NCBI GenBank assembly: GCA_029856125.1
Contig: JAHQWJ010000152.1
Span: 1-64,000 of the forward strand
Length of the DNA: 64,000 bases
Direction: 5' to 3'
Origin: Promethearchaeia archaeon
GTDB taxonomy: Archaea; Asgardarchaeota; Lokiarchaeia; Sigyniarchaeales; SOKP01
Part shown: one piece after another, positions 23,032 through 54,729 of the stretch
How positions within the stretch are numbered: the stretch's first letter is position 1
Layout: each line of letters opens with the position of its first letter
The notes under the pieces: generated by a model
Told to the model about the DNA's origin: nothing
Database searches by the model: none
Seen by the model: the letters and a program-made list of their open reading frames with translations, nothing else
Made by a program: the position numbers and the translations under genes

Positions 23032-23886
23032 TCACCTTTTTCCGTAATACAATTTGTTAATGAAAATTAAAATTACTATTACTCCCACGCAAATGAGGGT
23101 AGTGTTACTGATTGACATCGATAAGACCCCATACATAAACGATTCTACTAAAACTACGACTCCAATCATTGCGAACAATACAATAAGTCCAATTACCAAG
23201 AACTGCCCAATATTTTCTTTAGATTGACGATACGATATGTTATCCTTTAAAGCCCCTGATATCGCGATCTTTCTTGTCGATTTTTGCTCTAATTTGTTTC
23301 GTACAGTTTTTAGATGTAAGATCTTTTCGAAGGCATTTTTATCGAATTTGTGTTCGAGCTGTATCTGGAGCGCTTTTTCCTCGTCTTTGAACCTTTGCAT
23401 TAAGATCGGATTAAGCGTATTTTCGCTTTTTTGCTTTTTAGATTGACCACCTGATAAAAAAGAAAACATCGATACTGTTCGGTTTCGGTTCAACGCTTCT
23501 GAATTAATTTTTTCGTGTAAATTGGGTACTTCCAGCTTCTGAAGCTCGTAATACGCTTCAATTACACCCTTCACCTGCTCAAGATTTATATCTCCCTGTC
23601 GTTTCAAAAATAAAAGCTCTATTTGGGACAATTTCTCTATTAGTTCTGGTTTAAACACCGATACATTGAAGTTAAGGGCAAAAATATTGTTTACGAGTTT
23701 CATGTATTCAAAAATGTTTTCGCCTGACCCTCTCTCTCTCGTTCGTATACCTAATTTGATCCCTATTTCGTCAACTGCGTTGCTTACGAGCACAAAACTT
23801 ACTACCGCTAGCTTTTTATAGTTGCCCGTTTCCTTACAGAGCTGAATCAGTCGCTTTAACTTAACATCAAGCAACCGCTCGCTCAC
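23032..23886 (-). CDS. helical cytoplasmic domain + 2 C-terminal TM protein
   Basis: 4-nt overlap with upstream gene; two hydrophobic helices at the C-terminus. Confidence 0.7.
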   Translation of the reverse strand: MSERLLDVKLKRLIQLCKETGNYKKLAVVSFVLVSNAVDEIGIKLGIRTRERGSGENIFEYMKLVNNIFALNFNVSVFKPELIEKLSQIELLFLKRQGDINLEQVKGVIEAYYELQKLEVPNLHEKINSEALNRNRTVSMFSFLSGGQSKKQKSENTLNPILMQRFKDEEKALQIQLEHKFDKNAFEKILHLKTVRNKLEQKSTRKIAISGALKDNISYRQSKENIGQFLVIGLIVLFAMIGVVVLVESFMYGVLSMSISNTTLICVGVIVILIFINKLYYGKR

Positions 23887-24635
23887 TTTCTCACCCTCGT
23901 AGTTAAAAAATCCTCGTAAATTTGTTCTACCTCGTTCTTAGGCTCAATTTCCCGCTGTAATTTAGTGGACTCAAGTTCCAATTCTTCTTGAGCGATTAAT
24001 TTATCTAAATCAAATTCTTCCTTCGCATTTTCAATATATGATTTTATCACTTCTGCTGGAGTATTCTGCTCCTTTTCGAAAGTACTTATTACCGACTGGT
24101 TGAACAACGCATACGGAAACGTACATCCAAAGGAGAGTACTTGAAGCCAATAGCCAGGACCAATCGAATAGTTAAGCGTGAGTTCTAATTCGTAATCGAA
24201 ATAAACCATAAATGGGTAATAAAGATCGTTTGGTAATAAAAAAAACAAAGGGAACACTAACACGAAAAATCCGATTAGAGTAACTAATGAAATCGTAATA
24301 AAACTAAACCTCTTTACTTTTAACAGGTTATCGCCTTTTTCTACATCGTGAAAAAGCGTTGAATAAGCTGAAAGGAAGATCGCAACGATAAAAACCATCA
24401 CAATGACAACGGGCATAGTAGCGTTTTGTGGTTTGTAAGATTCGTTAAATAAATTCCCTTCTGTAAATGGAGTGCTCCACCCAAACAACGCGTTGTAAAT
24501 CCACGACATAATGGGCTCTCCACTGCTGTTAAGTACGCCTTGGATGTAATACCAATCTAAAAACACCGAAGCGAAGCTAAAGATAAGGCCAATTAAAAAA
24601 ATTATTTTATATCCTGACTTGATATTTATCGACAT
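23883..24635 (-). CDS. 4-TM membrane protein with acidic cytoplasmic tail
   Basis: TM1-DWY-loop-GW, TM2, TM3, IGPGYWL TM4. Confidence 0.75.
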   Translation of the reverse strand: MSINIKSGYKIIFLIGLIFSFASVFLDWYYIQGVLNSSGEPIMSWIYNALFGWSTPFTEGNLFNESYKPQNATMPVVIVMVFIVAIFLSAYSTLFHDVEKGDNLLKVKRFSFITISLVTLIGFFVLVFPLFFLLPNDLYYPFMVYFDYELELTLNYSIGPGYWLQVLSFGCTFPYALFNQSVISTFEKEQNTPAEVIKSYIENAKEEFDLDKLIAQEELELESTKLQREIEPKNEVEQIYEDFLTTRVRK

Positions 24636-24685: not shown

Positions 24686-24703
24686 AATTTATAAAGAAAA
24701 AAA
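24686..24703 (-). promoter_or_regulatory. T-rich-BRE TATA promoter of the ATPase operon
   Basis: Reverse complement TTTTTTTCTTTATAAATT. Confidence 0.65.
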
Positions 24704-24704
24704 T

Positions 24705-26570
24705 TTAAGGGTCGTCTAAAAAAGACAAGTATTTACTCCCGTATTTTGTTGTTGAATCACTGACAGTTTCAGACTTAAGCTGCTCAGGTTCGAACATATT
24801 TTGGAATTCCGGTTCTTTGTGTTTTACTTCTAAACTGTGTTTTAATGTATTTGTTTCACTTTGCTCAATGGCTCCGAATCTAGCATTTTTCATTAAACAT
24901 TCGTAGCCGAATTGAGTCAACAACTCGTCTGTGAGTTCTTCTTTAAAATCAAGCATATCAATCTCGCTAAATTCGAAGTTTTGCAGGTAGTAAGGAGTTT
25001 CGAATTGAACTGCGAATTTTTTTTTGTTCCGGTAAAAATTGAAATAAAATAGTGTTAGTAAAGATATGTAAATCCCTACGACAGCTAACCCGATGGTGTT
25101 AAGCAAGCGTAGTAAGAAATACCACTCTGCGAAATATATAATAAAGAGCGCTACAGAGTACCCTAAGATCGGAAAGGACGCTACTCTCACTCTAGTGCGA
25201 AGTTTTTCTTCCGAATGTCGATAATCTTTAACTAAATTTGTTTTTTTCGTTCTTTTTTCGATCATTCGATATTTCTTTTCTAAGAACTTAATCAAAGGAG
25301 CTAAATCAGGTTTGGTAATGGCGTGAAGATTAGAACTTCTTTGGTACGGGAAAGAAAGCGTTTTTTCCATGCTTCTGGGAGGATTGTTACAAAGTAAGAT
25401 AGGTTCGATAACGACCTTGTACTGAGTAGATCCAGAAAGAAGAAACAAACTTTTGTTTCCGAACCCTCTCTCTAAAGAAAGTGAAACTTGTAAGTATTTT
25501 TGGAAAAATTGGCGAATATTTTGATTATTAGCTAAATCTTCGTACATCAAATTCGTGGTTTGTAGTAAGTTTTGGCTGATTTGCTCGAGATTGTAAGCTC
25601 CAAGATCGTTTTTTTCCGTGTGTGATTTTAATTCTAGTTTGATTTCGTCAACTAACACCGTTCCTTCTTCGTCGAGCCATTTCACAGGAAAGAGAAACAG
25701 AAACCTAAGGTTATCTGAAGCTTTTACTAACTTACACCCGAGATAATCGAGATCTTTAGTAAATTTATTTAACGATTCTAGCGAACGCGGGATTTCATAA
25801 CATCCAACATCCTTAAACATGCTGCTAATTTGCTGGTTAATACTACTTTCGAAAAATTTTTCTTTGGAATCTTCGAAATCGATAATTTTTGGTTCTGCTG
25901 GTTTATAATCGATCACTTCATCTCCTATTATGTTTTTTTGCTCTGGGTGATCATGTCCAATATGTATTTCAGGAATACTTTCACGTGTAGGTTCTTCTTC
26001 ATATTCAGTTGGGGTTTTCAAATTGTTTTCTTTGTCCCATTCAATGACAAAATGTTCTTCTTCTTCAACATTATCTTTAGGGCTTTTAGTCCGTTTTGAT
26101 ACTGGAGGATAAGATGCCGTTAATCTCGAGTAATTAAACTTATCGGAAAACCATTTTTGATTAGACTGTGAGCGTTCGAAATCTTCATTAACTTCTTTTG
26201 GGGATTCGTCACTGATTTCTTCGATTTCTTCTACAACGACTTCTGCAACTTCGTATTTTTCAATAAGTTCTGATGTTAATTCATCCTCTACTGAAGGGAC
26301 GACTTGTTGAGAACTTTGTGCAATTTCATCTGTTTGAGAACCACTTAAATAAAATCTAGCTGCAGCAATAAACTTTGTAGCTGAAGCTAAACCAATTCCT
26401 GGAGTTTCTGACAACTTTTCGGGCGTCAACTTTGCGATTTGTTGTATCGATACAATTTTTGCGTTGTATAATTTTTCAGCAGTAGTAGCGCCAATACCTT
26501 TAATTTCCGTCAGATCGTCTCTGGAATGTTCACTGACTATATTTTCGTGAGTTCCATATACATCTGTCAT
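24705..26570 (-). CDS. membrane-anchored helix-hairpin-helix DNA-binding protein
   Basis: DLTEIKGIGATTAEKL...ETPGIG tandem HhH, acidic linker, 2 TM near the C-terminus. Confidence 0.75.
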   Translation of the reverse strand: MTDVYGTHENIVSEHSRDDLTEIKGIGATTAEKLYNAKIVSIQQIAKLTPEKLSETPGIGLASATKFIAAARFYLSGSQTDEIAQSSQQVVPSVEDELTSELIEKYEVAEVVVEEIEEISDESPKEVNEDFERSQSNQKWFSDKFNYSRLTASYPPVSKRTKSPKDNVEEEEHFVIEWDKENNLKTPTEYEEEPTRESIPEIHIGHDHPEQKNIIGDEVIDYKPAEPKIIDFEDSKEKFFESSINQQISSMFKDVGCYEIPRSLESLNKFTKDLDYLGCKLVKASDNLRFLFLFPVKWLDEEGTVLVDEIKLELKSHTEKNDLGAYNLEQISQNLLQTTNLMYEDLANNQNIRQFFQKYLQVSLSLERGFGNKSLFLLSGSTQYKVVIEPILLCNNPPRSMEKTLSFPYQRSSNLHAITKPDLAPLIKFLEKKYRMIEKRTKKTNLVKDYRHSEEKLRTRVRVASFPILGYSVALFIIYFAEWYFLLRLLNTIGLAVVGIYISLLTLFYFNFYRNKKKFAVQFETPYYLQNFEFSEIDMLDFKEELTDELLTQFGYECLMKNARFGAIEQSETNTLKHSLEVKHKEPEFQNMFEPEQLKSETVSDSTTKYGSKYLSFLDDP

Positions 26571-26595: not shown

Positions 26596-26612
26596 TTTAT
26601 AAAGAAAAAAAA
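26596..26612 (-). promoter_or_regulatory. T-rich-BRE TATA promoter
   Basis: Reverse complement TTTTTTTTCTTTATAAA, about 25 nt from ATG 26570 (leaderless spacing), in a divergent intergenic region. Confidence 0.7.
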
Positions 26613-26711: not shown

Positions 26712-26729
26712 TTTTTTTCCTTTATATTT
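26712..26729 (+). promoter_or_regulatory. T-rich-BRE TATA promoter
   Basis: TTTTTTTCCTTTATATTT upstream of the helicase, divergent intergenic region. Confidence 0.65.
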
Positions 26730-26792: not shown

Positions 26793-29318
26793 ATGTCTCT
26801 TACTAATTACACCAACTCTAAAAATCCAACAGATGAAGAAATAAAGGAAGAAGAAATATTTCAATTCATCCAAGACGAGCGGATCCTTCGAGTATTGTTC
26901 GAACAGAAAATCTTTAAGCTCCGGCAAATTCAGAAAGAAGCGATCCAAAAAGGATTGTTCTTTCGAAAGTCATTTTTGGTTTGTGCGCCCTCGGGAAGCG
27001 GGAAAACTTTGATAGGAGAAGTGTCAGCATTAAACAATGTCTTTCAAAAGTTTGGTAAGTCGATCTACTTAGTGCCTTACAAAGCGCTTGCTACCGAAAA
27101 ATATGTTCATTTCAAGAAATTTTACGAGCGATTCGGCATTAAAACCGAGTTATCGATAGGAGATTACGATGTTGACGACTCTCGTTTGGCTAAAGCTGAT
27201 TTAATTGTTACAACATACGAGAAAATGGACTCAATCTTGCGGAACTTTAGCGATAAAGAGTGGATATTCGATATTTCGACTATCATTATAGACGAGATAC
27301 ATATCATCGGCGAGTCAAGTCGTGGACCGAGATTGGAATCGCTTATCGTGAGGTTAATCGAGTTTCTACACCAACCGCAGATAATAGGGCTTTCAGCTAC
27401 CATTAAGAATCCTGAATTCTTTAATTCGTGGCTCTCTTCTCTCGGCAACGATACTACGCTAATAATTTCTGATGCACGACCTGTCCCTTTACACTATAGA
27501 ATAAAAATTACGCAAAATAAAGACTCCACTATCAAAAAACTTGTAAAGGCTACTTTAGAAAACAACGGACAAATATTAGTATTCCTCAACAAAAGAAAAT
27601 CGACTCAGCAGATGGCCCAAAATCTAAAAAATTTGGTTAAAGCACAAATTTCTGAAGTTGAGCTGAAAGCATGCAAGAAAGTGGAAGAAAAGCTCAGTAA
27701 AATTAAAGGAAGGCACGCAATACTTAAAAAAGCTGTTAAATTCGGAGTAGCTTTCCATCACGCAGGGCTCCTTCCAAAGGAGAGAAAACTCGTTGAAGAC
27801 GCTTATCGAAAACGAATAATTAAAATAATCTGTTGTACCACTACTTTAAGTGCGGGTCTTAACATGCCTGCCCGAGTAGTAATAGTGAAAGATTTTAAGC
27901 GGTATGTGACTTCAGGCCACAACATTAAAAACTTTTCTGGCTTTTACGAGAACGGAGACGGATTTTCTTACTTCATGCCGTTTTCAGCCAATACCGTTTT
28001 TCAAATGCTCGGTCGAGCAGGAAGACCAGGGCTTGATTCAGAAGGTTTTGGCTATTTAATTGCTAGCAATATAGACGAACGGGATTGGATCGAAGATCAT
28101 TACTTCCAGAACACTTTACCATCCGAAATTTATACGCCTAAATACAACGATTTAACTTCGGGGCTTAACAAACTTAACACTTTAAAAGAACAAGTGCTTT
28201 TGCGGATTTACGAGGAAAAAACAATAACTTTAGATAAACTAAAAGAGTTCTTCGAAAAAACTTACTTTTGGTATGGCATCAAAAATAAGATGGAACGACA
28301 GCAAATTCCTATAGATCAACTCTTGATGATTAAAGAAATTACCCCGGTTAACATCCTAAAACTTCATTCCGACCCTAAAAAAGTCAATACCTTGTCCAAC
28401 CGCCACCACCAGATTAAGATTACCAAATTAACTAAGTCAAACATATCGGGCTACATTAAAACCGATTTTGGAGTATTTTTTGCGGAGTTTGATATCGATG
28501 TAGGGATACGGTGCTCGTGCGGATTTGAAAACGGGATATCCAACAGCTACTCAGACGATCAATTCTCTTTTGAATTTTGCGACCACATCACTGCGTTTTT
28601 ACTACATTTAATCGGCATCCCCGACCAGAACTTCCAGAAATACGTCCAAGACATTGTTCCTAAGTCGGTAAAGAATCAATATGTGCTTAATTACTTGTTC
28701 GATAAAGGGCTAATCATCAAACAAGACGATGAAACCATAAAATGCTCGCAGTTTGGAAAACTCATCATCCGATTGTATCTTTATCCAGTTTCAGGAGTTT
28801 TAATAAGGTACAAGCTCGAAAATGCTGCAATAGAAACACATCAAGACATCATAAAAGAAGCCTATGAGGTGCTCAAGGCGGAATTAAGGGTCAGAAACTA
28901 CAAACTGCTCCAACCTATCTTGGAATGGTGTGATGAAGAGTCAATTGACGACATTTTGGAGAGACACAAGATAATGGCAGGCGACCTTTACAGCACAAAA
29001 GACAACTTAGAGCGAATTGTAACTTTCATTGGGATTATCGCCGTCCACCTAAGCGAGTCCGATCCAGACATCGCAGAAACCATGGTTAAAGTAGCTGAAA
29101 TGTCAGAAACGCTCAAAATTCGAGTGCATTACGGGATTAGCGAAGAATTATTTGATTTGGTCTTAAGATTAGACAACGTGGCGAGAGCGAGGGCGAGGAT
29201 ATTGTACGACGCAGGATACCATACCGCCACTAAGGTAAAAAAAGAAAATCCTTATGTGCTTAATCGAAAAACTGGATTAGGAATAAATTTGTGTAAAAAA
29301 ATCGTAAGTAAAAAATAA
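26793..29318 (+). CDS. Ski2-like DNA helicase (Hel308/Hjm family) with SWIM-type zinc finger insertion
   Basis: APSGSGKT, DEIH, SAT, FHHAGL, QMLGRAGRPG; CSC-x19-CDH; C-terminal HhH. Confidence 0.88.
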   Translation: MSLTNYTNSKNPTDEEIKEEEIFQFIQDERILRVLFEQKIFKLRQIQKEAIQKGLFFRKSFLVCAPSGSGKTLIGEVSALNNVFQKFGKSIYLVPYKALATEKYVHFKKFYERFGIKTELSIGDYDVDDSRLAKADLIVTTYEKMDSILRNFSDKEWIFDISTIIIDEIHIIGESSRGPRLESLIVRLIEFLHQPQIIGLSATIKNPEFFNSWLSSLGNDTTLIISDARPVPLHYRIKITQNKDSTIKKLVKATLENNGQILVFLNKRKSTQQMAQNLKNLVKAQISEVELKACKKVEEKLSKIKGRHAILKKAVKFGVAFHHAGLLPKERKLVEDAYRKRIIKIICCTTTLSAGLNMPARVVIVKDFKRYVTSGHNIKNFSGFYENGDGFSYFMPFSANTVFQMLGRAGRPGLDSEGFGYLIASNIDERDWIEDHYFQNTLPSEIYTPKYNDLTSGLNKLNTLKEQVLLRIYEEKTITLDKLKEFFEKTYFWYGIKNKMERQQIPIDQLLMIKEITPVNILKLHSDPKKVNTLSNRHHQIKITKLTKSNISGYIKTDFGVFFAEFDIDVGIRCSCGFENGISNSYSDDQFSFEFCDHITAFLLHLIGIPDQNFQKYVQDIVPKSVKNQYVLNYLFDKGLIIKQDDETIKCSQFGKLIIRLYLYPVSGVLIRYKLENAAIETHQDIIKEAYEVLKAELRVRNYKLLQPILEWCDEESIDDILERHKIMAGDLYSTKDNLERIVTFIGIIAVHLSESDPDIAETMVKVAEMSETLKIRVHYGISEELFDLVLRLDNVARARARILYDAGYHTATKVKKENPYVLNRKTGLGINLCKKIVSKK

Positions 29319-29334: not shown

Positions 29335-29350
29335 TTTTTTCCTTTTTAAC
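29335..29350 (+). promoter_or_regulatory. T-rich-BRE TATA promoter
   Basis: TTTTTTCCTTTTTAAC about 25 nt before ATG 29375. Confidence 0.5.
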
Positions 29351-29374: not shown

Positions 29375-29656
29375 ATGGATTTTGATACCGAAAACGATCT
29401 ATTCGACCTGAACTTCTCAAAAAAAGTAAGGATTAAAGAATTCTTAGTTTTTATGGAATCCGAGGAAGATCAAGACTATTATGTAATTAAAAAGTTCGAA
29501 AATACCAAAGAACAAAACTTAGAAACTCTTGAGATCATTCAAAAAATCATAAAAAGCGACCCGAAGATTAACTCCGACCGGATTAAGGGATATCTAAAGC
29601 GCCAACGCTTGTTCATAAAGCTCTATTTAAAAGAAATAAACAAAGATCAAGGATAG
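29375..29656 (+). CDS. hypothetical protein
   Basis: 93-aa ORF. Confidence 0.65.
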   Translation: MDFDTENDLFDLNFSKKVRIKEFLVFMESEEDQDYYVIKKFENTKEQNLETLEIIQKIIKSDPKINSDRIKGYLKRQRLFIKLYLKEINKDQG

Positions 29657-29657
29657 C

Positions 29658-29680
29658 TTTTTTCTTTAAATACTCAAAAA
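29658..29680 (+). promoter_or_regulatory. T-rich-BRE TATA promoter
   Basis: TTTTTTCTTTAAATACTCAAAAA; the CTTTAAATACTCAAAAA part is identical at 60293. Confidence 0.65.
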
Positions 29681-29707: not shown

Positions 29708-29980
29708 GTGAGTTATGAGAATATGGAAGCTTCTAAAAACGAAAAACACGAGCCAGTTGTTATAAAAATAATGAACTACGAGAACCTCGAGTCGGTGCTA
29801 TCGAAAATTGTAATTCCTTTTTCGGAAGTTATAAGAGATTTTAACATTCCAGATGTGTATGTTGGCTACGAGAAAATTCCGTTTGAGAAACGCGACCCGT
29901 TCTATCAGACTATTATGAGACAGGAGTTTGTGGATGAGATGAGATCATTAAAAAAAGGCATCTCAACAGAAGTTAAATAA
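29708..29980 (+). CDS. microprotein, IPF family
   Basis: KIVIPFSE...DVYVGYEKIPFEKRDPFYQTIMRQEF. Confidence 0.75.
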   Translation: MSYENMEASKNEKHEPVVIKIMNYENLESVLSKIVIPFSEVIRDFNIPDVYVGYEKIPFEKRDPFYQTIMRQEFVDEMRSLKKGISTEVK

Positions 29981-33736: not shown

Positions 33737-33752
33737 TAATAAAAAGGAAAAA
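33737..33752 (-). promoter_or_regulatory. T-rich-BRE TATA promoter
   Basis: Reverse complement TTTTTCCTTTTTATTA about 22 nt from ATG 33715. Confidence 0.55.
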
Positions 33753-36805: not shown

Positions 36806-36821
36806 GTATATAAAGAAAAAA
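36806..36821 (-). promoter_or_regulatory. T-rich-BRE TATA promoter
   Basis: Reverse complement TTTTTTCTTTATATAC. Confidence 0.6.
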
Positions 36822-36935: not shown

Positions 36936-38213
36936 TCAACAAAGCACGGGTGGCCCTTTCGGATTATAAAATTTCCATAGTTCTACTTTTACCGGCTCCT
37001 GATCTTCATATATCTCGTTTTTGTCTGAATCATAAAATTCATCAAAGTTGAGTTTGTGATTAGTGTTAAGATTATGCTGTTTATCATTAATAGATGCAAT
37101 CAAATACCCGCTGGCTTCTTTTACAAAAAGAAAATGCTCTTCACTCCCATTTAGGGAGTTAAATACTTTACTCGCGTTTCCCAATACTACTTGAACTATA
37201 TCGTCATTTTCAAGCGAATTTTTCGAACCTTCAATTGGATCGACAAAACCCTGATCGAGCACACCTAATTTTTGCATAACTTTTTTTAACAATTCCGCCG
37301 ATTTTACAAGGGTTTTGAATCCAGGAACGTTAAACCTTTGAATAACTCTTCTCTCTACTTGCCGGTGAATCGTTGACATTTTAATCCCTAATCGGTCACA
37401 AATTGCACATACGCTCACTTCTTTTGTTTGAGAGCAGAGGAGTGTAATAGAAGTCACTAAACCAACGATTACATCGTCTTTTGTGTTTTTGATTGAATCA
37501 TAAAACCTGTTTAGTATACGTCGTGATTGGTAGTAAAATGGCATGCCTAATTTAAAGTGCTCGCTCACTTCTAAAATTCGCTCGATTATGTATTGCTTGC
37601 GATTCCGCTCTTGGTAATCTGGCCAGATGCGAATAATCGAAAATTTAAAAGCGTTAAAGTCTTTCTTTGAAATTTTTGAGACCTCTAAAAGGTCTTTTTC
37701 GCTAATTGGCTTGTTATTTTCTTTGTAAAAGGCGTAGATCACACAAGGTACCAACATTTCAGCACTCCTGTATTTAGTGCCCTTCCCTAAATTAGCGCGA
37801 TTCTCTTTAAATTTACTTAGAATTACATCAAGATCTTTTAATGAGAAACCCAAAACGGTTAATATCCTTTTAATCTCTACTTTGGCTGCGATTAGAACAT
37901 TTTCTTCAGTTGAACGAGATGCGTCAATCCGACTAAGCCCTTCTAACTTTGCAGAATGTTGTAATTTACTCCTTTCGGACTTGAAACCAATCTGAGTTTT
38001 ACTTAATACCGCATGTTGAACGACATCAGCATCGTAAGGCCTATGATATTCTAATTTTTGCACCTCTAACACGATTCCGCAGGCTCTACAAGTAAAACCT
38101 TCTCGTGTCTCTACAAGGTCGTTAGATTTACAAATGTCGCACTGGGAGGTAGGATCAACTAAGGGATTCATCTTTAACGATTTTGATTTATCCATATTTT
38201 TGGTTGTTGCCAT
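36936..38213 (-). CDS. tfb: divergent transcription initiation factor IIB (TFB) paralogue
   Basis: CDIC-x15-CRACG zinc ribbon, two cyclin repeats (RSAEMLVPCVIY...PISEKDLLEVS; SVCAICDRLGIKMSTI), about 110-aa C-terminal extension. Confidence 0.82.
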   Translation of the reverse strand: MATTKNMDKSKSLKMNPLVDPTSQCDICKSNDLVETREGFTCRACGIVLEVQKLEYHRPYDADVVQHAVLSKTQIGFKSERSKLQHSAKLEGLSRIDASRSTEENVLIAAKVEIKRILTVLGFSLKDLDVILSKFKENRANLGKGTKYRSAEMLVPCVIYAFYKENNKPISEKDLLEVSKISKKDFNAFKFSIIRIWPDYQERNRKQYIIERILEVSEHFKLGMPFYYQSRRILNRFYDSIKNTKDDVIVGLVTSITLLCSQTKEVSVCAICDRLGIKMSTIHRQVERRVIQRFNVPGFKTLVKSAELLKKVMQKLGVLDQGFVDPIEGSKNSLENDDIVQVVLGNASKVFNSLNGSEEHFLFVKEASGYLIASINDKQHNLNTNHKLNFDEFYDSDKNEIYEDQEPVKVELWKFYNPKGPPVLC

Positions 38214-38843
38214 TTTTCTCCAACTTTTTTATAATTTTTTTGAAAAATATCGATTACATTTTAATTACAAAGAATTAAGATCACCAGTTTGCTATTTGAA
38301 GATTTGGAATTATGAAAAATCTCTAAAAATGTGGGAGATAATCAAATGATTAGTGAAAAATGAAGCGGAATGGTTGAGTAAACTTTAAAGTTTTTATGGA
38401 TTAATAAGAAATCATTCAATAGAAAGAAGATTAATACGGCATTTTTTCATCAAAATCACAATTTTGCAATTTTATTCCAAACAAGGAGAATTTTTGAATC
38501 GCAGTTGCGGAGGTTACAGCTTAAATTGGGAATATAAAAAGATGTGTAATGGAAATTTTGATTATATATTGCCCTTCATAATTCTTTTAATGTAAATATA
38601 TTAATAACAATAATAGAATTATAACCCAATTGAAATAAGTATAATATTCATAGAAAATTAAAATTGAATTAATTTCCTTCGACTTTTCTTAAGTCTCCCG
38701 TTGAAAGTTCTTTTATGAAACTCACTTTTATTCTTACATTTATCTTATCCATAAATTTCTTTATAAACACCTCTTAAAAATAATGATTAGTTTAAAGGGG
38801 AGATCAAAGAAAGAATAAAATAAACAATTTTTTCGATACTAAA

Positions 38844-38858
38844 TTTTTCTTTTAAATA
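38844..38858 (+). promoter_or_regulatory. T-rich-BRE TATA promoter
   Basis: TTTTTCTTTTAAATA 27 nt before ATG 38886, divergent intergenic region. Confidence 0.65.
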
Positions 38859-38885
38859 TGTTCCTATAATAGTAAAGATATAATC

Positions 38886-40736: not shown

Positions 40737-42083
40737 TTATATACTAATCTTGTGATATTTTTCAATAGAGATTATTGGTTCAAATTTAGGGGTCGGTCCT
40801 TGCTTACTTCTTACCCAGTTTAATTCTTCTTTAATATCAAGTTTAATCTCATCTTTATATTTAATCTTTTTTAACCTTAAAAATCTCAATGTTAATTTAT
40901 AGAATTTTATCGCTTGATCTTCTAATTCTAATTTAGCTAAAACTTTTGCTAGATTCCAATAATAAAATAAATCGTCCCTATACAATCGTATAGCTTCTAA
41001 AAATTTATTATGAGCTGTCCTGAAATTTTTTTTGTAAAAAGCCTTTATCCCTTTATAGTAATAATCCAACGATTTTTGTTCAATTAAGTTGAAAGAAAAA
41101 AAAGTGATTTCAATTTCCTTAATATTCTCAGATAAATCTTTTAATTTTTCTGTGATTTTGTCCCGATCTTCTTCGAATTGATATAATTTCGTTATAATAC
41201 TTTTAGCATACGATTCAATTGAAGAAAAAATAATTTTTTGGGTTCCTGGTTTAAGTGGTCCTTTTTTCAAAGAATTTAATAAAATACTAGGAAAATCTAA
41301 ATCATTTAATAATTCAGTTGTCTTAAGAATTAATTTTATTTCGTTCCCGGAAAGAAGATCTTTATTTTCTATTGCTTCCAAAAAGAATGTAGCGAATTTA
41401 GGCGATCTTACGGATATACCAGTTACCAAATCAAAAATTTTATCCTTTTTATCGTTTTTCTCTAATTTTAATAATTCTACAGCAAATTTTGCTATCAAAT
41501 CTTCCTGCTCTTTTATAATAAACGAATCAGTAAAATCAACAAAATTCTTAACGAGCATTGCCTTACGGATTTTTGTTATGATTTGAAAAATTTTAAGTGA
41601 ATAACCCTCATCAAGTTTGTTGCACTTAAATCTAACAGAAGGAATAGATTCATTGTTATAATAGAATACTGTGGAAATATTACTAAAACCTGCATTGGAT
41701 AATAGTTCTTTTAATAAGGAAGGAGGAAAACAAATCTTGTGTTGCAATCCTTTATGAGGTATTCCAAAAAACCATCCCAATATCTCCTTTTTCTGCTCTC
41801 CGTTTGCTTTCAAATAATGCTGACAAGTTTTCTCAAGGTCAGGAGTTTCAAGGATTAATTTCCCATTTGGTTCTAATACTCTAAAGATTTCACTAAGAGC
41901 ATAAATAGTTTCAAAAAAACTTAAGTGTTCAATTATATGAATCGCTTTAATTTCATCGCAAGTATTGTCATCAAATTCAAGGTTAAAAGCTGACATGAGT
42001 CTATCAGCCACTAAATCTTCATATAAATCAATGTTACAATAATTTAGATTGTATTTTTTACCGCAACCAATATTAAGCTTCAT
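40737..42083 (-). CDS. methyltransferase (type 11-like) + TPR protein
   Basis: LNIGCG, HIIEHL, RVLEPNG...TPD; C-terminal TPR helices. Confidence 0.78.
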   Translation of the reverse strand: MKLNIGCGKKYNLNYCNIDLYEDLVADRLMSAFNLEFDDNTCDEIKAIHIIEHLSFFETIYALSEIFRVLEPNGKLILETPDLEKTCQHYLKANGEQKKEILGWFFGIPHKGLQHKICFPPSLLKELLSNAGFSNISTVFYYNNESIPSVRFKCNKLDEGYSLKIFQIITKIRKAMLVKNFVDFTDSFIIKEQEDLIAKFAVELLKLEKNDKKDKIFDLVTGISVRSPKFATFFLEAIENKDLLSGNEIKLILKTTELLNDLDFPSILLNSLKKGPLKPGTQKIIFSSIESYAKSIITKLYQFEEDRDKITEKLKDLSENIKEIEITFFSFNLIEQKSLDYYYKGIKAFYKKNFRTAHNKFLEAIRLYRDDLFYYWNLAKVLAKLELEDQAIKFYKLTLRFLRLKKIKYKDEIKLDIKEELNWVRSKQGPTPKFEPIISIEKYHKISI

Positions 42084-42162
42084 TTTTTTTTATTAAAGTC
42101 TTTTATATTTACAGTTGATATTTTGCTCCGCTAGGATAAGTGTTTCTTATCGATTCATACCT

Positions 42163-42411
42163 TCATTTTTTAGCTTCAAAATCCTCTATTTTTACAGTAG
42201 AATATAATGTTCCAGCAGGATAAATATGTCTTGAGGCTTCAATTCCAAAAATAATAATGACAATGCCCAAAAAAATAAAGACAATTATCATTAGGATTGT
42301 AAATATTAATGGATATTTAGAATTGTCAAATAAAAAGATTTTATTAATTTCTTTTTTACTTAATCCTAACTCTTTACCGATTTTATTCAATTGAAAAAAA
42401 TTATCTAACAT
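42163..42411 (-). CDS. small single-TM protein
   Basis: 82 aa, SD AGGAGG upstream, located between the rSAM and MTase genes. Confidence 0.65.
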   Translation of the reverse strand: MLDNFFQLNKIGKELGLSKKEINKIFLFDNSKYPLIFTILMIIVFIFLGIVIIIFGIEASRHIYPAGTLYSTVKIEDFEAKK

Positions 42412-42445
42412 TTTTAAGATCCCTCCTTTAAATTTTATTATCAGA

Positions 42446-43549
42446 TTATTTGAATATTAAGTTATGAAACATATTTTTTAATATTGAAATTGTTGAATCC
42501 AATTTCCCTTTTAGTGGTAACTGTTGCGAGGAAAACAATTTATTTTCAATTGCTCTTAGACAATAAGGCTCTTCAAATTCTTTTAATGCATATGCTGTTC
42601 CCAAACATCCTCCCCGACAAATTTTTGCCAAATCACAATCTACGCAATAACCTTTTAACTGTTTTTGTTTTAGCCTTAACTTTTCCAAAATCGTTTTCAA
42701 ACTCTGCGTTCTAATATTTCCTTCTATAAATCCATCTGGGAGAGTTAGACATCCTTTAATATTTCCGTTACTCTGAATGCCTAAAACTGATTTTCCCGCT
42801 TGACACCCCACCCATGGATCCAACCCTAAATTTGGTATAAACTTTGAAAAATGGCCGAAACAATGGGCACCAATAACTGGTAATCTTTTATAAGAATACT
42901 TTTTCACGTTTATGGCAATGAATAATGCTACAGTGTAAAATTCTTCTCTCGAAATCGTTAATTCTCTTGGAAAGCGTCCTATAGGGATTGCTATCTGAAT
43001 TTGCCAAGCAATATTTCGATCTAATAAGATGTTTTTTATCTTATCTAGTTCATTCAAATTAGTTTTACTTACTGCTGTAATAACACTAACTGGTAGTTTT
43101 TCTTCTTTTAACCTATTAATCGCATTTAGAGTTTTTTCAAATGCTCCTGGAATACCTCTAAGATAATCGTGGACTTTGGCCGAACCTCCATCTAAACTCA
43201 GTGATACACAATCAACTTTTAGGCTTTTTAATTTTTGAATGTTATCAACTAAAGTTAATCCATTAGTAACAATTGATAATTCTAACTTATTTTTTTTAAT
43301 TTCTTTCGCAATTTCATACCAATCTTCTCTAATTAATGGTTCTCCTCCCATCAAAGCAACTCCTTTATATCCACAATCATGGATTTCCCTAACTAATTTT
43401 AATGATTCTTCGGTATCCAGTTCATCAAGACGGGTTTTTCCCGCTTTTGATCCACAATGAATGCAATTACTATTACATTTTAGTGTAATTTCCCATACAG
43501 CGCAAGAGGGTTTAATCCTTTGAGATATTAGAGAAGTAATGCTTGGCAT
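42446..43549 (-). CDS. radical SAM/SPASM-domain protein (PqqE/COG0535-like)
   Basis: CNSNCIHC, GGEP, TNG, SLDG; CQAG...GC...CVDC.....CRGGC...C. Confidence 0.9.
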   Translation of the reverse strand: MPSITSLISQRIKPSCAVWEITLKCNSNCIHCGSKAGKTRLDELDTEESLKLVREIHDCGYKGVALMGGEPLIREDWYEIAKEIKKNKLELSIVTNGLTLVDNIQKLKSLKVDCVSLSLDGGSAKVHDYLRGIPGAFEKTLNAINRLKEEKLPVSVITAVSKTNLNELDKIKNILLDRNIAWQIQIAIPIGRFPRELTISREEFYTVALFIAINVKKYSYKRLPVIGAHCFGHFSKFIPNLGLDPWVGCQAGKSVLGIQSNGNIKGCLTLPDGFIEGNIRTQSLKTILEKLRLKQKQLKGYCVDCDLAKICRGGCLGTAYALKEFEEPYCLRAIENKLFSSQQLPLKGKLDSTISILKNMFHNLIFK

Positions 43550-43953: not shown

Positions 43954-44364
43954 ATGAAATCTAATAAAAAATTAATAAAAAGGTATAAAAACATGGCTGA
44001 AATTTCAAAAGAAGCGAAAATTATTATTTTGATTAATATGATTGTTTCCTTTCTCTTTGCTTTCTTTTTTTTAGGAATTCCAGAAATTTATGCGAGTTGG
44101 ACTAATGATGCCTATTTCTCTCCTATTTGTTGGCGACAACTAGGAGGAACACTTCTAGTACTTGGAATATTTGGTATAATCGCATTAATACGAAAAGAAT
44201 GGGAGCAAATAAGAATATTTTGGGAAATAGGAATTGCGTTCGTAATATTATTAGTTTGCATCGATATATGGGTCATAGCTAATGGCATATTTGATTATAC
44301 GGTAATTGTCGAAATTGTGTTAGTTGCAATTAACATCATTTTTTATATAAGAGAAAGGAGATAG
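43954..44364 (+). CDS. 4-TM membrane protein, paralogue of 4926..5318
   Basis: See paralogue; start probably ATG 43993. Confidence 0.72.
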   Translation: MKSNKKLIKRYKNMAEISKEAKIIILINMIVSFLFAFFFLGIPEIYASWTNDAYFSPICWRQLGGTLLVLGIFGIIALIRKEWEQIRIFWEIGIAFVILLVCIDIWVIANGIFDYTVIVEIVLVAINIIFYIRERR

Positions 44365-44532: not shown

Positions 44533-44549
44533 TTCTTTTCCTTTAAATA
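44533..44549 (+). promoter_or_regulatory. T-rich-BRE TATA promoter
   Basis: TTCTTTTCCTTTAAATA about 21 nt before ATG 44571. Confidence 0.65.
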
Positions 44550-44570: not shown

Positions 44571-44951
44571 ATGATCAACGCCCCCGATTCAAAAATCTCT
44601 AATCAGATAAAATGCTCCATCTGCCGAGCCGACATTAAAGATCGCCACGATTTGTATCAATCGAACTTAAAACTGGGAGTTATCTGCAAGACCTGCCGAG
44701 AGCGGTTTTCTGAGGAAGATGTTGAGATGATAGTAAACCTTTTTTTCGCCTTCGGTGGATATTTCGGACAGTTCGATAAATCCGCGTTTTCTTTAGACGA
44801 GTTAGTCATAGAATTTGCAGAGCAGTTAGACGCAGGCAACTCGACCTTTCATTTACAGAATGTGAAAATGTGGCACAAAATATTAACTCACGGTATTGCT
44901 CCCAAAGATTTTTTAAAAGAACTTTCTACCTATGTTGAACAAGGCTTGTAA
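44571..44951 (+). CDS. zinc-finger protein, paralogue of 13410..13796
   Basis: CSIC..CKTC, FAFGGYFGQ, HGIAP. Confidence 0.75.
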   Translation: MINAPDSKISNQIKCSICRADIKDRHDLYQSNLKLGVICKTCRERFSEEDVEMIVNLFFAFGGYFGQFDKSAFSLDELVIEFAEQLDAGNSTFHLQNVKMWHKILTHGIAPKDFLKELSTYVEQGL

Positions 44952-47425: not shown

Positions 47426-47444
47426 TTTTTTTTCTTTATAAATA
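47426..47444 (+). promoter_or_regulatory. T-rich-BRE TATA promoter of radA
   Basis: TTTTTTTTCTTTATAAATA in a divergent intergenic region. Confidence 0.7.
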
Positions 47445-51587: not shown

Positions 51588-51602
51588 CTTATAAAGGAAA
51601 AA
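51588..51602 (-). promoter_or_regulatory. T-rich-BRE TATA promoter
   Basis: Reverse complement TTTTTCCTTTATAAG, divergent intergenic region. Confidence 0.68.
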
Positions 51603-51807: not shown

Positions 51808-51823
51808 TTTTTTTCTTTAAATA
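51808..51823 (+). promoter_or_regulatory. T-rich-BRE TATA promoter
   Basis: TTTTTTTCTTTAAATA 22 nt before ATG 51846. Confidence 0.7.
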
Positions 51824-51845: not shown

Positions 51846-52070
51846 ATGGTATTGTTCGATTATTTTGAAGATGTTCTAGGAGGAGTCGAGTTTTTGATAG
51901 CCTTCGGTTCGCTTGTGGGAATCCTTGGACTTTTAATTGGCATTATGTTAGCTATTTGGGGCGGAAGTCGGCTTCGCTACAAGATGCTAGGAGTTATAAT
52001 ATTCTCATTTGTGTTGATTGCGATTTGCGGCTTCGATACTGGATTCAAATACTTCAGAATTTTTAGATAA
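51846..52070 (+). CDS. 74-aa two-helix hairpin membrane protein (VirB2/CedA1 pilin-like topology)
   Basis: Two Gly-rich hydrophobic helices joined by basic loop GGSRLRYK. Confidence 0.65.
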   Translation: MVLFDYFEDVLGGVEFLIAFGSLVGILGLLIGIMLAIWGGSRLRYKMLGVIIFSFVLIAICGFDTGFKYFRIFR

Positions 52071-52091: not shown

Positions 52092-52475
52092 TTAGCAATA
52101 ATGGTATCCTTGGGATGGTTGACTCCCTCCAAACACTAACCCTAAAAATTCGAAAGGGACTCCGGTAAGAAAAGCGCCGATCCATAGTAATAACGCACTA
52201 GCTAGAAACGATTTAACGCGGAATTGGTGAAAGAAGATTTTGAGGATGTTTATTACGAACAAGGCGCCCCCAATGGTAAGGAAAATTTGACCTACGCTCA
52301 TGAAAATTGTTTTAAAAAATGTTCCTGTCATATAACGCAAATTCGATCCGAAAAAAGGCACGATTATTGCGATGAAACCTAAAATCCCGAGGATCATTAA
52401 AAAAGTGCGGTTTGACTTGCGTTGTTTTCGAAGGATTATGATACCGTTGCTACTTTTAGCCATAGATTTTATCAC
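52092..52475 (-). CDS. small 3-TM protein
   Basis: Basic N-terminus, TM, then hairpin with HQFRVK loop. Confidence 0.7.
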   Translation of the reverse strand: MIKSMAKSSNGIIILRKQRKSNRTFLMILGILGFIAIIVPFFGSNLRYMTGTFFKTIFMSVGQIFLTIGGALFVINILKIFFHQFRVKSFLASALLLWIGAFLTGVPFEFLGLVFGGSQPSQGYHYC

Positions 52476-52509: not shown

Positions 52510-52523
52510 CTTATAAAGAAAAA
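52510..52523 (-). promoter_or_regulatory. T-rich-BRE TATA promoter
   Basis: Reverse complement TTTTTCTTTATAAG, divergent intergenic region. Confidence 0.65.
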
Positions 52524-52894: not shown

Positions 52895-52910
52895 TTTTTC
52901 TTTTTTATAA
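52895..52910 (+). promoter_or_regulatory. T-rich-BRE TATA promoter (variant)
   Basis: TTTTTCTTTTTTATAA 20 nt before the fen ATG. Confidence 0.5.
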
Positions 52911-52930: not shown

Positions 52931-54031
52931 ATGGGAGTTAAACTTCAAGATTTAGTGATCCGAAACGTAATCGAATTTTCCAAACTTGCAGGTAAGATTA
53001 TAGCGGTAGATGCCCCAAATGTAATAATGAGTTTGTTTAATTTCGCTCGCAAAAACCCTGACGGTTCTCAAGCAGGACTTATTCTCGACCGCACCCAAAG
53101 ACCGATATCTCACCTTTATGGCTTGCTCTTTAGGACGAACTTTTTCTATTCTAAGAAAATTTTCCCCATTTTTTGCTTCGATGGACTCGATTCCGACCTA
53201 AAAAAGCTAAAAACTAAGGATAGGCTCAACGACTTCTTATTCACGGAAAAGTTATATCGATCATTAATCCAATCAGGGAACAGAGAAAACGCGAAACAAA
53301 TCGCTTTATCGAAAGAATATATGTGGCCCAACATTGTTAAAGAATCCAAGCAACTTCTAGGTGCATTAGGCGTGCCATACATAAGCGCTCCCGCTTCAGC
53401 AGAATCACAATGTGCTCAAATTGTTAAAAGCAAAGTTGCACACTATTCTAACTCTCAAGATTTTGACTCTCTTCTTTTTGGATGCCCGCAGACGCTCCAA
53501 AACCTCTCAAAATCATTAAGAAGGAAAGTGCAGGGTCGCTGGAAATATCAAAAAATCACTCCCGTTAAGATCGATCTCAACGAAAATCTAAAAAGGTTGG
53601 AAATCGATCAGTTTCAATTAGTAGACATGGCGCTCCTGATAGGAACCGACTATTTTCCGGGTATAAAAAATATTGGACCAAAAAACGCTTACAAATTCAT
53701 TAAAAAGCACCGTTCCATAGAAAATGTGATCATAGAAGAAAAAAGAAATTACGATTTTTCTGCCTTGAGTTCCGAAGTCATTGCGAAGGTAAGAAAAATC
53801 TTTTTACTCCCCGAAGTATTAACAGATTATCCACATTTGGGCTGGAATTTTCCTAGCGAACAACAAACATTAAACTTATTGTGCGAAGATCACCATCTCA
53901 ATCGAGAACGGGTAGAAAACAACTTTAAAAAGTTGGCTATAAATTACGGAAAGTGCCAAATCTTTTTCTCCAACAAAACGAGAAATCCCTCGAAAAAACA
54001 AGAAACTCTTGATTCTATTTTTTCTACTTAG
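52931..54031 (+). CDS. fen: flap endonuclease 1 (FEN1/XPG family)
   Basis: MGVKL, AVDA, FDG, AESQCA, SQDFDSLLFG, LIGTDY..GIKNIGPK, PIP-box-like KQETLDSIF. Confidence 0.9.
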   Translation: MGVKLQDLVIRNVIEFSKLAGKIIAVDAPNVIMSLFNFARKNPDGSQAGLILDRTQRPISHLYGLLFRTNFFYSKKIFPIFCFDGLDSDLKKLKTKDRLNDFLFTEKLYRSLIQSGNRENAKQIALSKEYMWPNIVKESKQLLGALGVPYISAPASAESQCAQIVKSKVAHYSNSQDFDSLLFGCPQTLQNLSKSLRRKVQGRWKYQKITPVKIDLNENLKRLEIDQFQLVDMALLIGTDYFPGIKNIGPKNAYKFIKKHRSIENVIIEEKRNYDFSALSSEVIAKVRKIFLLPEVLTDYPHLGWNFPSEQQTLNLLCEDHHLNRERVENNFKKLAINYGKCQIFFSNKTRNPSKKQETLDSIFST

Positions 54032-54039
54032 AAATTTAA

Positions 54040-54054
54040 TTTTTCTTTATAAAA
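54040..54054 (+). promoter_or_regulatory. T-rich-BRE TATA promoter
   Basis: TTTTTCTTTATAAAA. Confidence 0.6.
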
Positions 54055-54072: not shown

Positions 54073-54729
54073 GTGTTAATTAAAATCTACACTCACATAA
54101 CTAACGAAATTGAGAGAAGTATGGCAGAATCAACGAACGATGCGATCATTCTGCAAAACAGTTTAAGAACCTATAGAAGGGTTCCAAGGGACCATGTTAA
54201 CAAAGAGAAAGTGCTTAACTACTTTTTTAGATTCGAAAGCTTTGCGGATAACACTAATGAATACAAAGATTTAACCCCCTTGATCGTGAAGAACATTGTG
54301 AAGGAAACGAACTTACCCGATTTCGTAGTGTTAAACACCGTTTTTGAGTTTATAACCGATGCGACCCAATTCAGTCATACTTTAAGGTTAGGACTCGTTT
54401 CGTGGGGTTCAGGAGAGAAAAGCGTTTTACGCCAGTCGAAATTTTATCTGAGAAAGGTTCATAGAATCGCCCCTGTGTTTGATTACCCCCGAGCAATTGC
54501 CAACTTAGAGATTTTACACAAAATCTTAAAAAAAAACTTTTTTTGGCCACACATCACCACTCAACTTGCTTTAACCATATTCGTGACCGACAGAAAAGAC
54601 CCAACTATAACGAAAAATGAGTATATCCTGCAAAAAAACCTAAGAACATTTTGCGCGTGCTCCGCTTACGCCTTCCACATGGCCAGAAAGAAGCTTCATA
54701 TTGACAAGACGGGTTGTATCTACACTTAA
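54073..54729 (+). CDS. hypothetical protein, possibly cyclin-fold / TFB-core-like
   Basis: C-terminal ...LALTIFV...ILQKNLRTFCACSAYAF resembles the end of a TFB cyclin repeat; start may be ATG 54121. Confidence 0.5.
   Translation: MLIKIYTHITNEIERSMAESTNDAIILQNSLRTYRRVPRDHVNKEKVLNYFFRFESFADNTNEYKDLTPLIVKNIVKETNLPDFVVLNTVFEFITDATQFSHTLRLGLVSWGSGEKSVLRQSKFYLRKVHRIAPVFDYPRAIANLEILHKILKKNFFWPHITTQLALTIFVTDRKDPTITKNEYILQKNLRTFCACSAYAFHMARKKLHIDKTGCIYT

Follow-up and report, generated by a model that had tools for sequence, protein, structure and literature searches.

The common picture of transcription in archaea and eukaryotes is of a single basal machinery that gene-specific regulators adjust. 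To our knowledge, replacement of the promoter reader itself, in the style of bacteria, has weak archaeal precedents only: the paralogues of transcription factor B (TFB) and TATA-binding protein (TBP) in haloarchaea, and TFB2 and TFB3 of Sulfolobus. In canonical TFB and TFIIB, a valine and an arginine of the recognition helix touch bases of the B-recognition element (BRE), as seen in 1D3U and the human TFIIB-BRE structures. Sulfolobus TFB3 acts in the response to UV and DNA damage and activates the Ups pili and the Ced DNA importer. Sulfolobus TFB2 serves a cell-division regulon, and the promoters that respond to it carry BREs like those of TFB1 and differ in spacing (bioRxiv 10.64898/2026.09.06.749720). 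TFB homologues in Asgard viruses and mobile elements have likewise been noted in published work. Here we describe P0001, a divergent TFB-family protein of 425 residues encoded by an uninterrupted open reading frame (ORF) at positions 36936-38213 on the minus strand of a 64,000-nucleotide (nt) stretch of Asgard DNA (GenBank contig JAHQWJ010000152.1 of assembly GCA_029856125.1), called the window below. Its source is a Loki-type (Promethearchaeota) metagenome-assembled genome of 3.69 Mb and 99% completeness, of which the contig of the window (our C152) makes up 1.9%. P0001 carries a rewritten BRE-reading helix and is surrounded by promoters in which a run of T residues stands at the BRE position; the two may well belong together.

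P0001 is near certain to be a complete, if highly divergent, member of the TFB/TFIIB family, distant from the seven canonical TFBs of the same genome. Its close homologues are mostly annotated as hypothetical, under the labels Lokiarchaeota, Hermodarchaeota or Promethearchaeota. Searches with the single sequence stay below curated cut-offs in Pfam (Zn_Ribbon_TF at E 0.0017, Cyclin_N at E 0.0047; PF08271 at 18.3 bits for a cut-off of 29) and in NCBIfam (TFIIB model NF001658 at 16.2 bits for a cut-off of 384). The curated TFIIB repeat, PF00382, has no match in P0001 and at E <= 0.01 finds just 6 of 67 family members, and a single-sequence search of the PDB returned sub-threshold or irrelevant matches only. 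It is therefore by profile and fold evidence that P0001 is identified, and for membership of the TFIIB superfamily this evidence is far beyond chance.

An alignment of 30 homologues, compared by hhalign with the seven canonical TFBs of the genome, matches them at 95-97% probability (E 1.6e-8) and lays residues 20-284 of P0001 onto TFB residues 4-290, a span that takes in the ribbon, the linker and both cyclin repeats. A profile built from 67 diverse members (alignment A2, the basis of the family-wide conservation values below) finds human TFIIB (8e-8), P. woesei TFB (4e-6), Brf2 (2e-4) and Brf1 (3e-4) among PDB sequences. The AlphaFold2 (AF2) model has a pLDDT above 90 over residues 100-320, and its core superposes best on P. 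woesei TFB in the TBP/BRE-TATA complex (1d3u_B; TM 0.80, rmsd 3.2 A); all Foldseek matches at E <= 0.001 are TFIIB, TFB or Brf chains. The core carries a net charge of +15, compared with +12 to +20 in the canonical TFBs. A true cyclin with a CDK partner was considered and rejected, as cyclins proper score far more weakly than TFIIB in the fold search (E ~2e-2).

P0001 departs from the BRE-reading consensus V-T-E-V-T-x-R-N-R-Y, though its helix-turn-helix is canonically placed. The second cyclin repeat with the helix-turn-helix (residues 202-292, 37338-37610, minus strand, as for all parts of the gene given below) was delimited by hhalign and by Foldseek matches to 1d3u_B and 1ais_B. Within it, residues 279-291 (37341-37379) form a recognition helix that reads M-S-T-I-H-R-Q-V-E-R-R-V-I in place of the canonical sequence. 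By hhalign, G-I-K-M-S-T-I-H-R-Q-V is set column by column against the G-V-T-E-V/A-T-L/I/V-R-x-R of the genome's own TFBs, and the positions of the canonical BRE-contacting valine and arginine are Ser280 and His283, the latter being glutamine in deeper members. The new helix is itself highly constrained: its core, M-S-T-[IV]-[HQ]-x-Q-V, is retained in 22 of 23 related loci, down to 38% overall identity, and S280, I282, Q285 and V286 rank among the best-conserved positions of P0001. Across the 67 members, conservation peaks in the zinc ribbon, the helix-turn-helix and a segment just past the core.

A pattern recurs upstream of genes in the same region: a T-run of four to eight residues, C or CC, and then TTTATA or TTTAAATA, as in the form TTTTTTC-TTTATATA. 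Sixteen transcription units between 23.8 and 60.4 kb of the window carry such a T-run, C and TATA box, with the T-run 33-78 nt upstream of the start codon. The T-run and its C occupy the exact place of the purine-rich BRE and abut the TATA box. Counted over the genome as TTTT[TC]C immediately followed by TTT and five A/T bases, at sense-upstream sites, the pattern falls on the window contig at 12 of its 43 sites (about 14-fold enriched; binomial p 2e-11), and an A-rich control pattern, with 5 of 284 sites there, shows no enrichment. Among genes with a perfect TTTAWATA box, the T-run and C fill the BRE position in 6 of 11 cases inside the accessory island that surrounds P0001 versus 10 of 265 elsewhere (Fisher p 5e-6); outside the island the commonest class at that position is A-rich (91 of the 265). 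The motif is also retained before orthologues at 30-40% protein identity. The preliminary description of this DNA had proposed both an altered BRE-reading helix and a T-rich promoter class around the gene, and both proposals are upheld: the former by M-S-T-I-H-R-Q-V in the aligned canonical place, the latter by the enrichment on a small part of the genome, the excess among perfect TATA boxes and the conservation before orthologues.

One other reading of the motif was set aside. It might have been a mere oligo-T terminator, and yet 10 of the 16 sites have no co-directional gene end within 150 nt, and the C and the fixed abutment on the TATA box are conserved. A scan for promoters and terminators of the sigma-70 type was uninformative, a bacterial model being irrelevant to an archaeon. 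As a side observation, two more island promoters, upstream of 54818-55747 and 56913-57587, have the form TTTTTTG-TTTAAATA with G replacing C; C may therefore not be strictly required.

The TFB-like gene itself is preceded by a promoter of the ordinary kind. Its upstream region is A-rich and has no T-run in any of the 23 loci, and in the window a canonical-looking BRE/TATA stretch, caaaaaaattataaaaaa (38225-38242, minus strand), assigned by sequence only, lies 12 nt before the start codon region. The 670-nt spacer upstream of the gene (38214-38885, minus strand) carries several invariant or near-invariant blocks in an alignment (A3) of eight loci whose proteins are about 62-89% identical. One is the element ACTGGTGATCTT (38277-38288, minus strand), invariant in that alignment and a candidate operator or leader. 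The 9-mer CTGGTGATC occurs in one copy per locus, solely before the TFB-like gene, in 13 of 23 loci, and the 11-mer CTGGTGATCTT has two occurrences in the 3.7-Mb genome. A second conserved block reads TTGCAAAATTGTGATTTTGATGAAAAAAT in the window (38441-38469, minus strand; block TTGCAAAATTGTGATTTTGA), and the eight loci differ at four of its columns; structure prediction gives it just a local hairpin, with no covariation. A near-invariant block at 38680-38700 (minus strand) contains the inverted repeat GACTT-n5-AAGTC, whose arms are identical in all eight loci, and a 27-codon ORF running across it is not conserved. Structured RNA in the spacer was considered and found no support, there being no Rfam match, just local invariant hairpins from RNAalifold, and an unfavourable covariation term. 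The blocks look like operator sites controlling the TFB-like gene.

The setting of the gene is also conserved. In 21 of 23 related loci it has the same genes on either side, and this holds at identities as low as 38%; the exceptions, L023 and L025, are paralogous loci without the island synteny. One flank, divergently transcribed, holds an M50-like membrane gene, a gene for 116 amino acids (aa) and a gene for a RadB-like ATPase; the opposite flank holds the gene of a 987-aa prenyltransferase-toroid protein together with a 191-aa gene, a Hef-like helicase gene and a zinc-ribbon gene. A Hel308-like helicase, a membrane protein with a helix-hairpin-helix (HHH_5) domain, an XPG/FEN-like nuclease and a RadA paralogue belong to the island as well. 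Two further RadA genes of the genome are 44-45% identical to this one. The whole is a syntenic accessory island of spare DNA-recombination and membrane genes. Carriage of this copy of P0001 as mobile-element cargo was rejected in view of chromosomal synteny that extends to 38% identity and of the lack of matches in IMG/VR.

The TFB-like gene, the island and the motif travel together. Among 301 sampled Asgard genomes, full-length members of the P0001 family (333 clusters at 50% identity) were found only in one family-level taxon (f1, Lokiarchaeia/Promethearchaeota); outside f1 the family profile picks up just the N-terminal halves of ordinary TFBs. Measured against a backwards-read control in these genomes, the motif is about 1.95-fold in excess in the 54 f1 genomes that have the gene, stands at 1.29 in five f1 genomes where no island RadA was found, and drops to 0.79 in a sister family, f2. 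Island RadA, M50-like gene and TFB-like gene are all missing together from four genomes (G121, G144, G183 and G138), and in a further one (G264), where two markers were searched, island RadA and the TFB-like gene are both absent. Metagenome loci anchored on the M50-like gene and informative upstream point the same way, with the TFB-like gene adjacent in 11 of 14 and the T-run promoter kept in all 14.

Outside the recognition helix, P0001 combines strict conservation with marked change. The zinc ribbon (residues 24-49, 38067-38144) has the spacing C25-x2-C28-x13-C42-x2-C45 with all four cysteines invariant across the 67 members, 40 of which are matched by PF08271 (best E 2.7e-8). The first cyclin repeat (residues 102-201, 37611-37910) is matched by profile to repeat 1 of human TFIIB, P. 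woesei TFB, Brf1 and Brf2 and is modelled with pLDDT above 90, and both repeats stand in the TFIIB/TFB arrangement by hhalign and Foldseek alike. Between ribbon and repeats, the B-reader/B-linker (residues 50-101, 37911-38066) is shortened, as seen in a length comparison and in hhalign gaps at the B-reader loop: the ribbon-to-cyclin-1 segment measures 57 aa in P0001 versus 70-82 aa in the seven canonical TFBs, and is thus 13-25 aa shorter. By hhalign, L-E-Y-H-R-P-Y-D aligns opposite the canonical x-G-P-E-W-R-A-F, with R-P-Y opposite R-A-F, and K-T-Q-I-G opposite the B-linker L-S-T-M-I-G; the B-reader loop between the two aligned pieces is largely deleted, and AF2 confidence is low in this segment. 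Constraint persists here too, as at least 90% of members keep P59, T73, G76, E80 and R81.

Counted from the first residue of the recognition helix, P0001 runs for 147 aa to its C-terminus versus 16-25 aa in canonical TFBs, about 125 extra residues. The first part of the extension (residues 293-320, 37254-37337) is as constrained as the core, at 2.35 bits per column, with G298, F299, L302 and S305 near-invariant; AF2 models it confidently as a helix, and it has no counterpart in canonical TFBs, which end about there. What follows is a variable acidic tail (residues 321-425, 36939-37253) with a net charge of -9, predicted to form a beta-hairpin, an Asn-rich linker and a terminal strand. The pLDDT of the tail is low in both AF2 models, in which the same small beta and other secondary-structure elements recur, and the tail residues have no match in Pfam and no usable match in the Atlas. 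The best-conserved feature of this otherwise variable region is a K[GD]PP motif in the last ~10 residues of nearly every member (K-G-P-P at residues 419-422 of P0001, 36948-36959; P421 at 4.15 bits and P422 at 4.32 bits, n=67). GPP and DPP are known as proline tripeptides at which translation stalls strongly, in dependence on EF-P or a/eIF5A. The tail and its motif could serve in binding or docking of a partner, in auto-inhibition, or in a translation stall near the stop codon.

In its claims about the architecture of the protein, the preliminary description was partly exact and partly approximate. The zinc ribbon and both cyclin repeats that it reported are confirmed by hhalign, PDB profile matches, AF2 and Foldseek fold, and the invariant cysteines. 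It had called the B-reader short on the grounds of EYHRPY for EWRAF; shortness is real for the whole ribbon-to-cyclin-1 segment and does not apply to EYHRPY itself, which is no shorter than its counterpart. The extension of about 110 residues that it described also exists and has proved to be larger.

The simplest account of the locus is that P0001 acts, much as a sigma factor does, as the initiation factor for the T-run promoters, and on comparative grounds we would give this account an even chance of being correct. It is favored because the helix is rewritten yet highly constrained, because the promoter element lies exactly at the BRE position, because one conserved accessory island holds both the protein's gene and the promoters, and because the TFB-like gene itself has an ordinary promoter. 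Under such a scheme, housekeeping TFBs would transcribe the TFB-like gene from its A-rich promoter, with the conserved upstream blocks probably exerting control. P0001 would then pair with one of the cell's three TBPs on the island TATA boxes; since none of the three full TBPs is located in the island, host TBPs would have to serve. The rewritten helix (S280, T281, H/Q283, Q285) would read the A:T tract, with its A residues on the opposite strand, and the zinc ribbon would bring in RNA polymerase, such that the island might be switched on as one unit, like an alternative sigma factor and its regulon. A fuller version of the proposal, which we put forward tentatively and rate at somewhat below even, is that in one Asgard family a dedicated TFB reads a poly-T 'inverted BRE' and thereby switches a recombination (possibly DNA-transfer) island of ~40 kb, with separate control through the spacer operators and maybe through K[GD]PP, by an aIF5A-dependent stall or by docking of a partner.

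Several observations weigh against the assignment of P0001 to the T-run. Ten T-run sites precede unrelated genes outside the island (extra-island sites include L064-L071; for example G000:C30:10510-11046, L069). Most products of these genes are unknown proteins; the others include one Arf-like GTPase, an MFS transporter and a class-V aminotransferase, and no common function was seen. Helix and motif do not visibly covary, as position 283 is H or Q in the 23 loci with no visible change in the motif. In 3 of the 14 M50-anchored loci, rearrangement has placed another gene where the TFB-like gene would be, and the T-run promoter is kept. Loss of most of the B-reader loop could compromise both the choice of start site and initial transcription. 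The 191-aa island protein, of unassigned fold, is an alternative candidate for the reader of the T-run. All genomes with the P0001 family belong to one taxonomic family, which makes the co-occurrence effectively one evolutionary event, and the link between protein and motif, as drawn from sequence, is guilt by association within one island.

Genomes that keep the motif and show no family member can be counted on the same side of the balance only with reservation. Every candidate was scored among the ten near-complete f1 genomes without a family member, and five of the ten keep both the island-type RadA and the motif excess, some with clustered motifs. The island contigs of two of these genomes were read, and both break exactly at the place of the TFB-like gene: G150:C59 (L057) ends just past the start of the M50-like gene, and G234:C43 (L058) begins at the 191-aa gene. 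Calls of gene absence at this segment are unreliable. It was seen besides that, of the island pieces noted (those two, G252:C31 or L059, and G234:C88 or L060), the pieces from G150 and G234 end at the segment with the TFB-like and toroid genes, and that other pieces (G252, G159) also lie at contig ends. The segment appears to resist assembly or binning in a systematic way, perhaps owing to strain differences or to more than one copy.

P0001 might instead be a TFB-derived regulator that does not read the T-run, either a decoy or modulator competing for TBP or the polymerase dock, or a co-activator like Sulfolobus TFB3. In that case a different protein of the island, for instance the 191-aa product, could read the T-run, or the T-run could act through DNA shape on the binding and polarity of TBP. 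We judge this unlikely, if by no means negligible. The short ribbon-to-cyclin segment with its B-reader loop largely missing would suit such a role, as would the acidic tail, which could mimic DNA or auto-inhibit; it would also accommodate the three loci that retain the T-run promoter with no TFB-like gene adjacent, the lack of covariation between helix and motif, and a 191-aa gene, unassigned to any family, whose synteny equals that of the TFB-like gene. It sits less easily with a helix-turn-helix that is among the best-conserved parts of the protein and is carried on a basic core, as a DNA reader should have it, or with a motif placed exactly at the BRE position and abutting the TATA box. 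TFB3-type co-activators, moreover, have lost the cyclin core, whereas P0001 keeps the full ribbon and core.

The origin of the family brings in a different explanation, which we regard as improbable: P0001 would be a domesticated or exchanged TFB of a virus or mobile element, used in virus-host conflict to hijack transcription or to block a viral TFB, with its place in the island incidental. The closest annotated relative is indeed viral. The TFIIB-like protein of Lokiarchaeota virus WyrdV1 (MZ666939.1, 13195-13917; QYW08131.1) matches the family by hhalign at 98.4% (E 1e-14), with 24% identity over residues 59-285, and shares with it the linker P-Y-D...G-F-K-S-E and the helix L-G-I-x-x-S-T-[IV]. 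The TFBs already reported from Asgard viruses and mobile elements, a variable copy number with fragments and stop-containing copies in relatives, and the non-syntenic paralogues at L023 and L025 would agree with such a history. The copy in the window, however, is a syntenic ortholog between the same chromosomal genes down to 38% identity, and a search of IMG/VR viral contigs yielded no member of the P0001 family. The WyrdV1 protein, at 240 aa, has neither zinc ribbon nor C-terminal extension, and the exact T-run-C-TATA motif was not found in the WyrdV1 genome. A viral source is in any case compatible with P0001 as the initiation factor for the T-run promoters, as it concerns origin more than function. 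Use of the TFIIB fold outside transcription, for example as an ORC6-like DNA-binding scaffold in replication or recombination, appears very improbable. It is suggested by the company of RadA and RadB paralogues, Hef-like and Hel308-like helicases and an XPG-like nuclease, and by a weak match of PF21913, the second ORC6 cyclin-like domain, in 2 of 67 members (best E 8e-4). It is opposed by the invariant ribbon of TFIIB type that PF08271 recognizes in most members; such a ribbon is a polymerase-docking module and is absent from ORC6. Significant profile and fold matches, besides, are all to TFIIB, TFB or Brf, those to ORC6 being marginal.

The 16 T-run promoters of the window are distributed over both strands. 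That of the toroid gene downstream of P0001, TTTTTTCTTTATATA, lies at 36807-36821 (minus strand); in the window, L026 and L029 this sequence precedes the toroid gene by 66-68 nt, and the same motif is found 49-68 nt before the orthologue in L026-L029. The promoter of the divergent operon of M50-like, 116-aa and RadB-like genes (38844-38857, plus strand) recurs ahead of the M50-like gene in all 28 metagenome loci whose upstream sequence is long enough, and that of the operon of the 191-aa gene, Hef-like helicase and zinc-ribbon gene (33738-33752, minus strand) is kept before the 191-aa orthologue in L028-L031. Also conserved, in L027 and L029, is the promoter of the operon 51225-51551/50198-51235 (51588-51602, minus strand). 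Promoters of genes with an assigned domain or likeness include those of a four-gene membrane/ATPase-like operon from 23883-24635 onward (24688-24703, minus strand), the HhH membrane protein gene at 24705-26570 (26596-26612, minus strand), the Hel308-like helicase gene at 26793-29318, assigned by Pfam (26712-26728, plus strand), the island RadA paralogue (47426-47442, plus strand) and the XPG/FEN-like nuclease gene at 52931-54031, also assigned by Pfam (52895-52908, plus strand). The others precede the small genes 29375-29656 (29335-29350, plus strand) and 29708-29980 (29658-29672, plus strand), gene 44571-44951 (44536-44549, plus strand), the small ORF 51846-52070 (51808-51823, plus strand), gene 52092-52475 (52510-52523, minus strand), gene 54073-54729 (54040-54053, plus strand) and the operon 60353-62780 (60286-60301, plus strand).

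One stretch of the island stands apart. A methyltransferase/radical-SAM cassette (40737-43549 and 43954-44364), placed between the RadB-like gene and gene 44571, is free of T-run promoters. Most related loci do not have it, and in these the orthologue of gene 44571 comes immediately after the RadB-like gene (L012-L015, L017-L022, L024). This pattern fits a later insertion into the island.

The basal factors of the genome form a large combinatorial set for an Asgard archaeon, seven TFBs and three TBPs. The seven canonical TFBs (303-321 aa) are encoded on C84 (two genes), C73, C63, C12, C36 and C18. Of the three full TBPs, two stand in tandem on C136, and there is in addition a 321-aa ORF with a single TBP repeat; loci of TBP type are C136:59164-60426, C142:6138-6659 and C38:40949-41170.

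In a tree confined to family members and Loki TFBs, the P0001 family forms one group (SH-aLRT 91) on a branch of ~4 substitutions per site. A genome of the sister family (G285) encodes another TFB-like paralogue of 423 aa (L061, G285:C108, 386-1657, minus strand), 22% identical to P0001. Its helix, V-T-A-S-T-V-Y-S-Y-L, is intermediate between the canonical and P0001-family forms, and its C-terminal extension is long and ends in P-P-V-S, not K[GD]PP. The island-like genes of G285 have no T-run motif. WyrdV1, for its part, contains three copies of a ~60-nt element starting TTTTGTTTTTTAAGG, near 1040, 2135 and 2515, before three gene blocks; this element loosely resembles the T-run-G variants of the island. 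A search of the literature found no paper on the chromosomal P0001 family or on the T-run promoter class. New here are the linkage count anchored on the neighboring gene, the extent of K[GD]PP across the family, the conserved blocks of the spacer, the relative in WyrdV1, and the contig breaks that make calls of gene absence unreliable.

Comparison with described systems sets P0001 closest in plan to canonical TFB and TFIIB (1D3U, 1AIS, human TFIIB), with which it shares a ribbon, a linker, two cyclin repeats, a C-terminal helix-turn-helix in the same place and a basic core. Unlike them it has no PF00382 match, has largely lost the B-reader loop, has a changed helix, and ends in the long extension with K[GD]PP; a very long branch parts its family from the seven canonical TFBs of its own genome. 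To the WyrdV1 protein it is joined by family-specific linker and helix motifs, and it differs from this virus-borne, ribbon-less and tail-less form, in whose genome three copies of the T-rich TTTTGTTTTTTAAGG element stand in place of T-run-C-TATA. A chromosomal TFB family is in this way linked to a virus-encoded TFB.

Among the TFIIB-related factors of eukaryotes, Brf1, Brf2 and Rrn7/TAF1B resemble P0001 in architecture, with a ribbon and core of TFIIB type, a divergent B-reader and an extension at the C-terminus. Profile matches to Brf2 and Brf1 are weak and those to TFIIB and TFB better, and in PDB sequences the similarity covers just cyclin repeat 1 for Brf2, and for Brf1 the stretch from the ribbon to the middle of repeat 1. 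Neither Brf1 homology blocks nor a TBP-anchor domain was found in the tail with Pfam or the Atlas. The Rrn7-type ribbon PF11781 matches 3 of 67 members only (best E 9e-4), with no match to the Rrn7 cyclin families, and no Rrn7/TAF1B chains are among the PDB profile or Foldseek matches. Restricted as it is to one Lokiarchaeial family, the P0001 family is therefore not an ancestor of these factors; it appears as a TFIIB-family factor that gained a C-terminal extension independently of Brf and Rrn7. From ORC6 it is separated by the invariant zinc ribbon, PF21913 being confined to the two members mentioned above.

P0001 resembles Sulfolobus TFB2 and TFB3 as a TFB paralogue that we propose to be dedicated to a gene set, and the set served by TFB3, in DNA exchange and repair, resembles the content of the island. 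It is not orthologous to the Sulfolobus paralogues, and its family occurs in full length in a single Lokiarchaeial family only. Unlike truncated TFBs of the TFB3 type, which consist of a ribbon and a coiled coil with no core, P0001 has both cyclin repeats plus the tail; and unlike TFB2 promoters with their TFB1-like BREs, island promoters carry a different sequence class at the BRE position. What would be expected of a regulon with its own TFB, a distinct element at the BRE position in a gene set linked to the factor, is found here in enrichment, conservation and linkage. With BRE-reading residues changed and promoters altered in complementary fashion at the position they read, the locus offers a testable case for promoter-class switching based on the BRE, in the archaeal lineage closest to eukaryotes, and a natural TFB/BRE specificity pair for dissecting how helices of the TFIIB family read DNA. 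The likeness to bacterial alternative sigma factors is one of function: a factor is encoded near its prospective regulon, and its helix would match a distinct promoter element. Unlike sigma factors, it comes from an unrelated protein family, and recognition would still need TBP and the TATA box.

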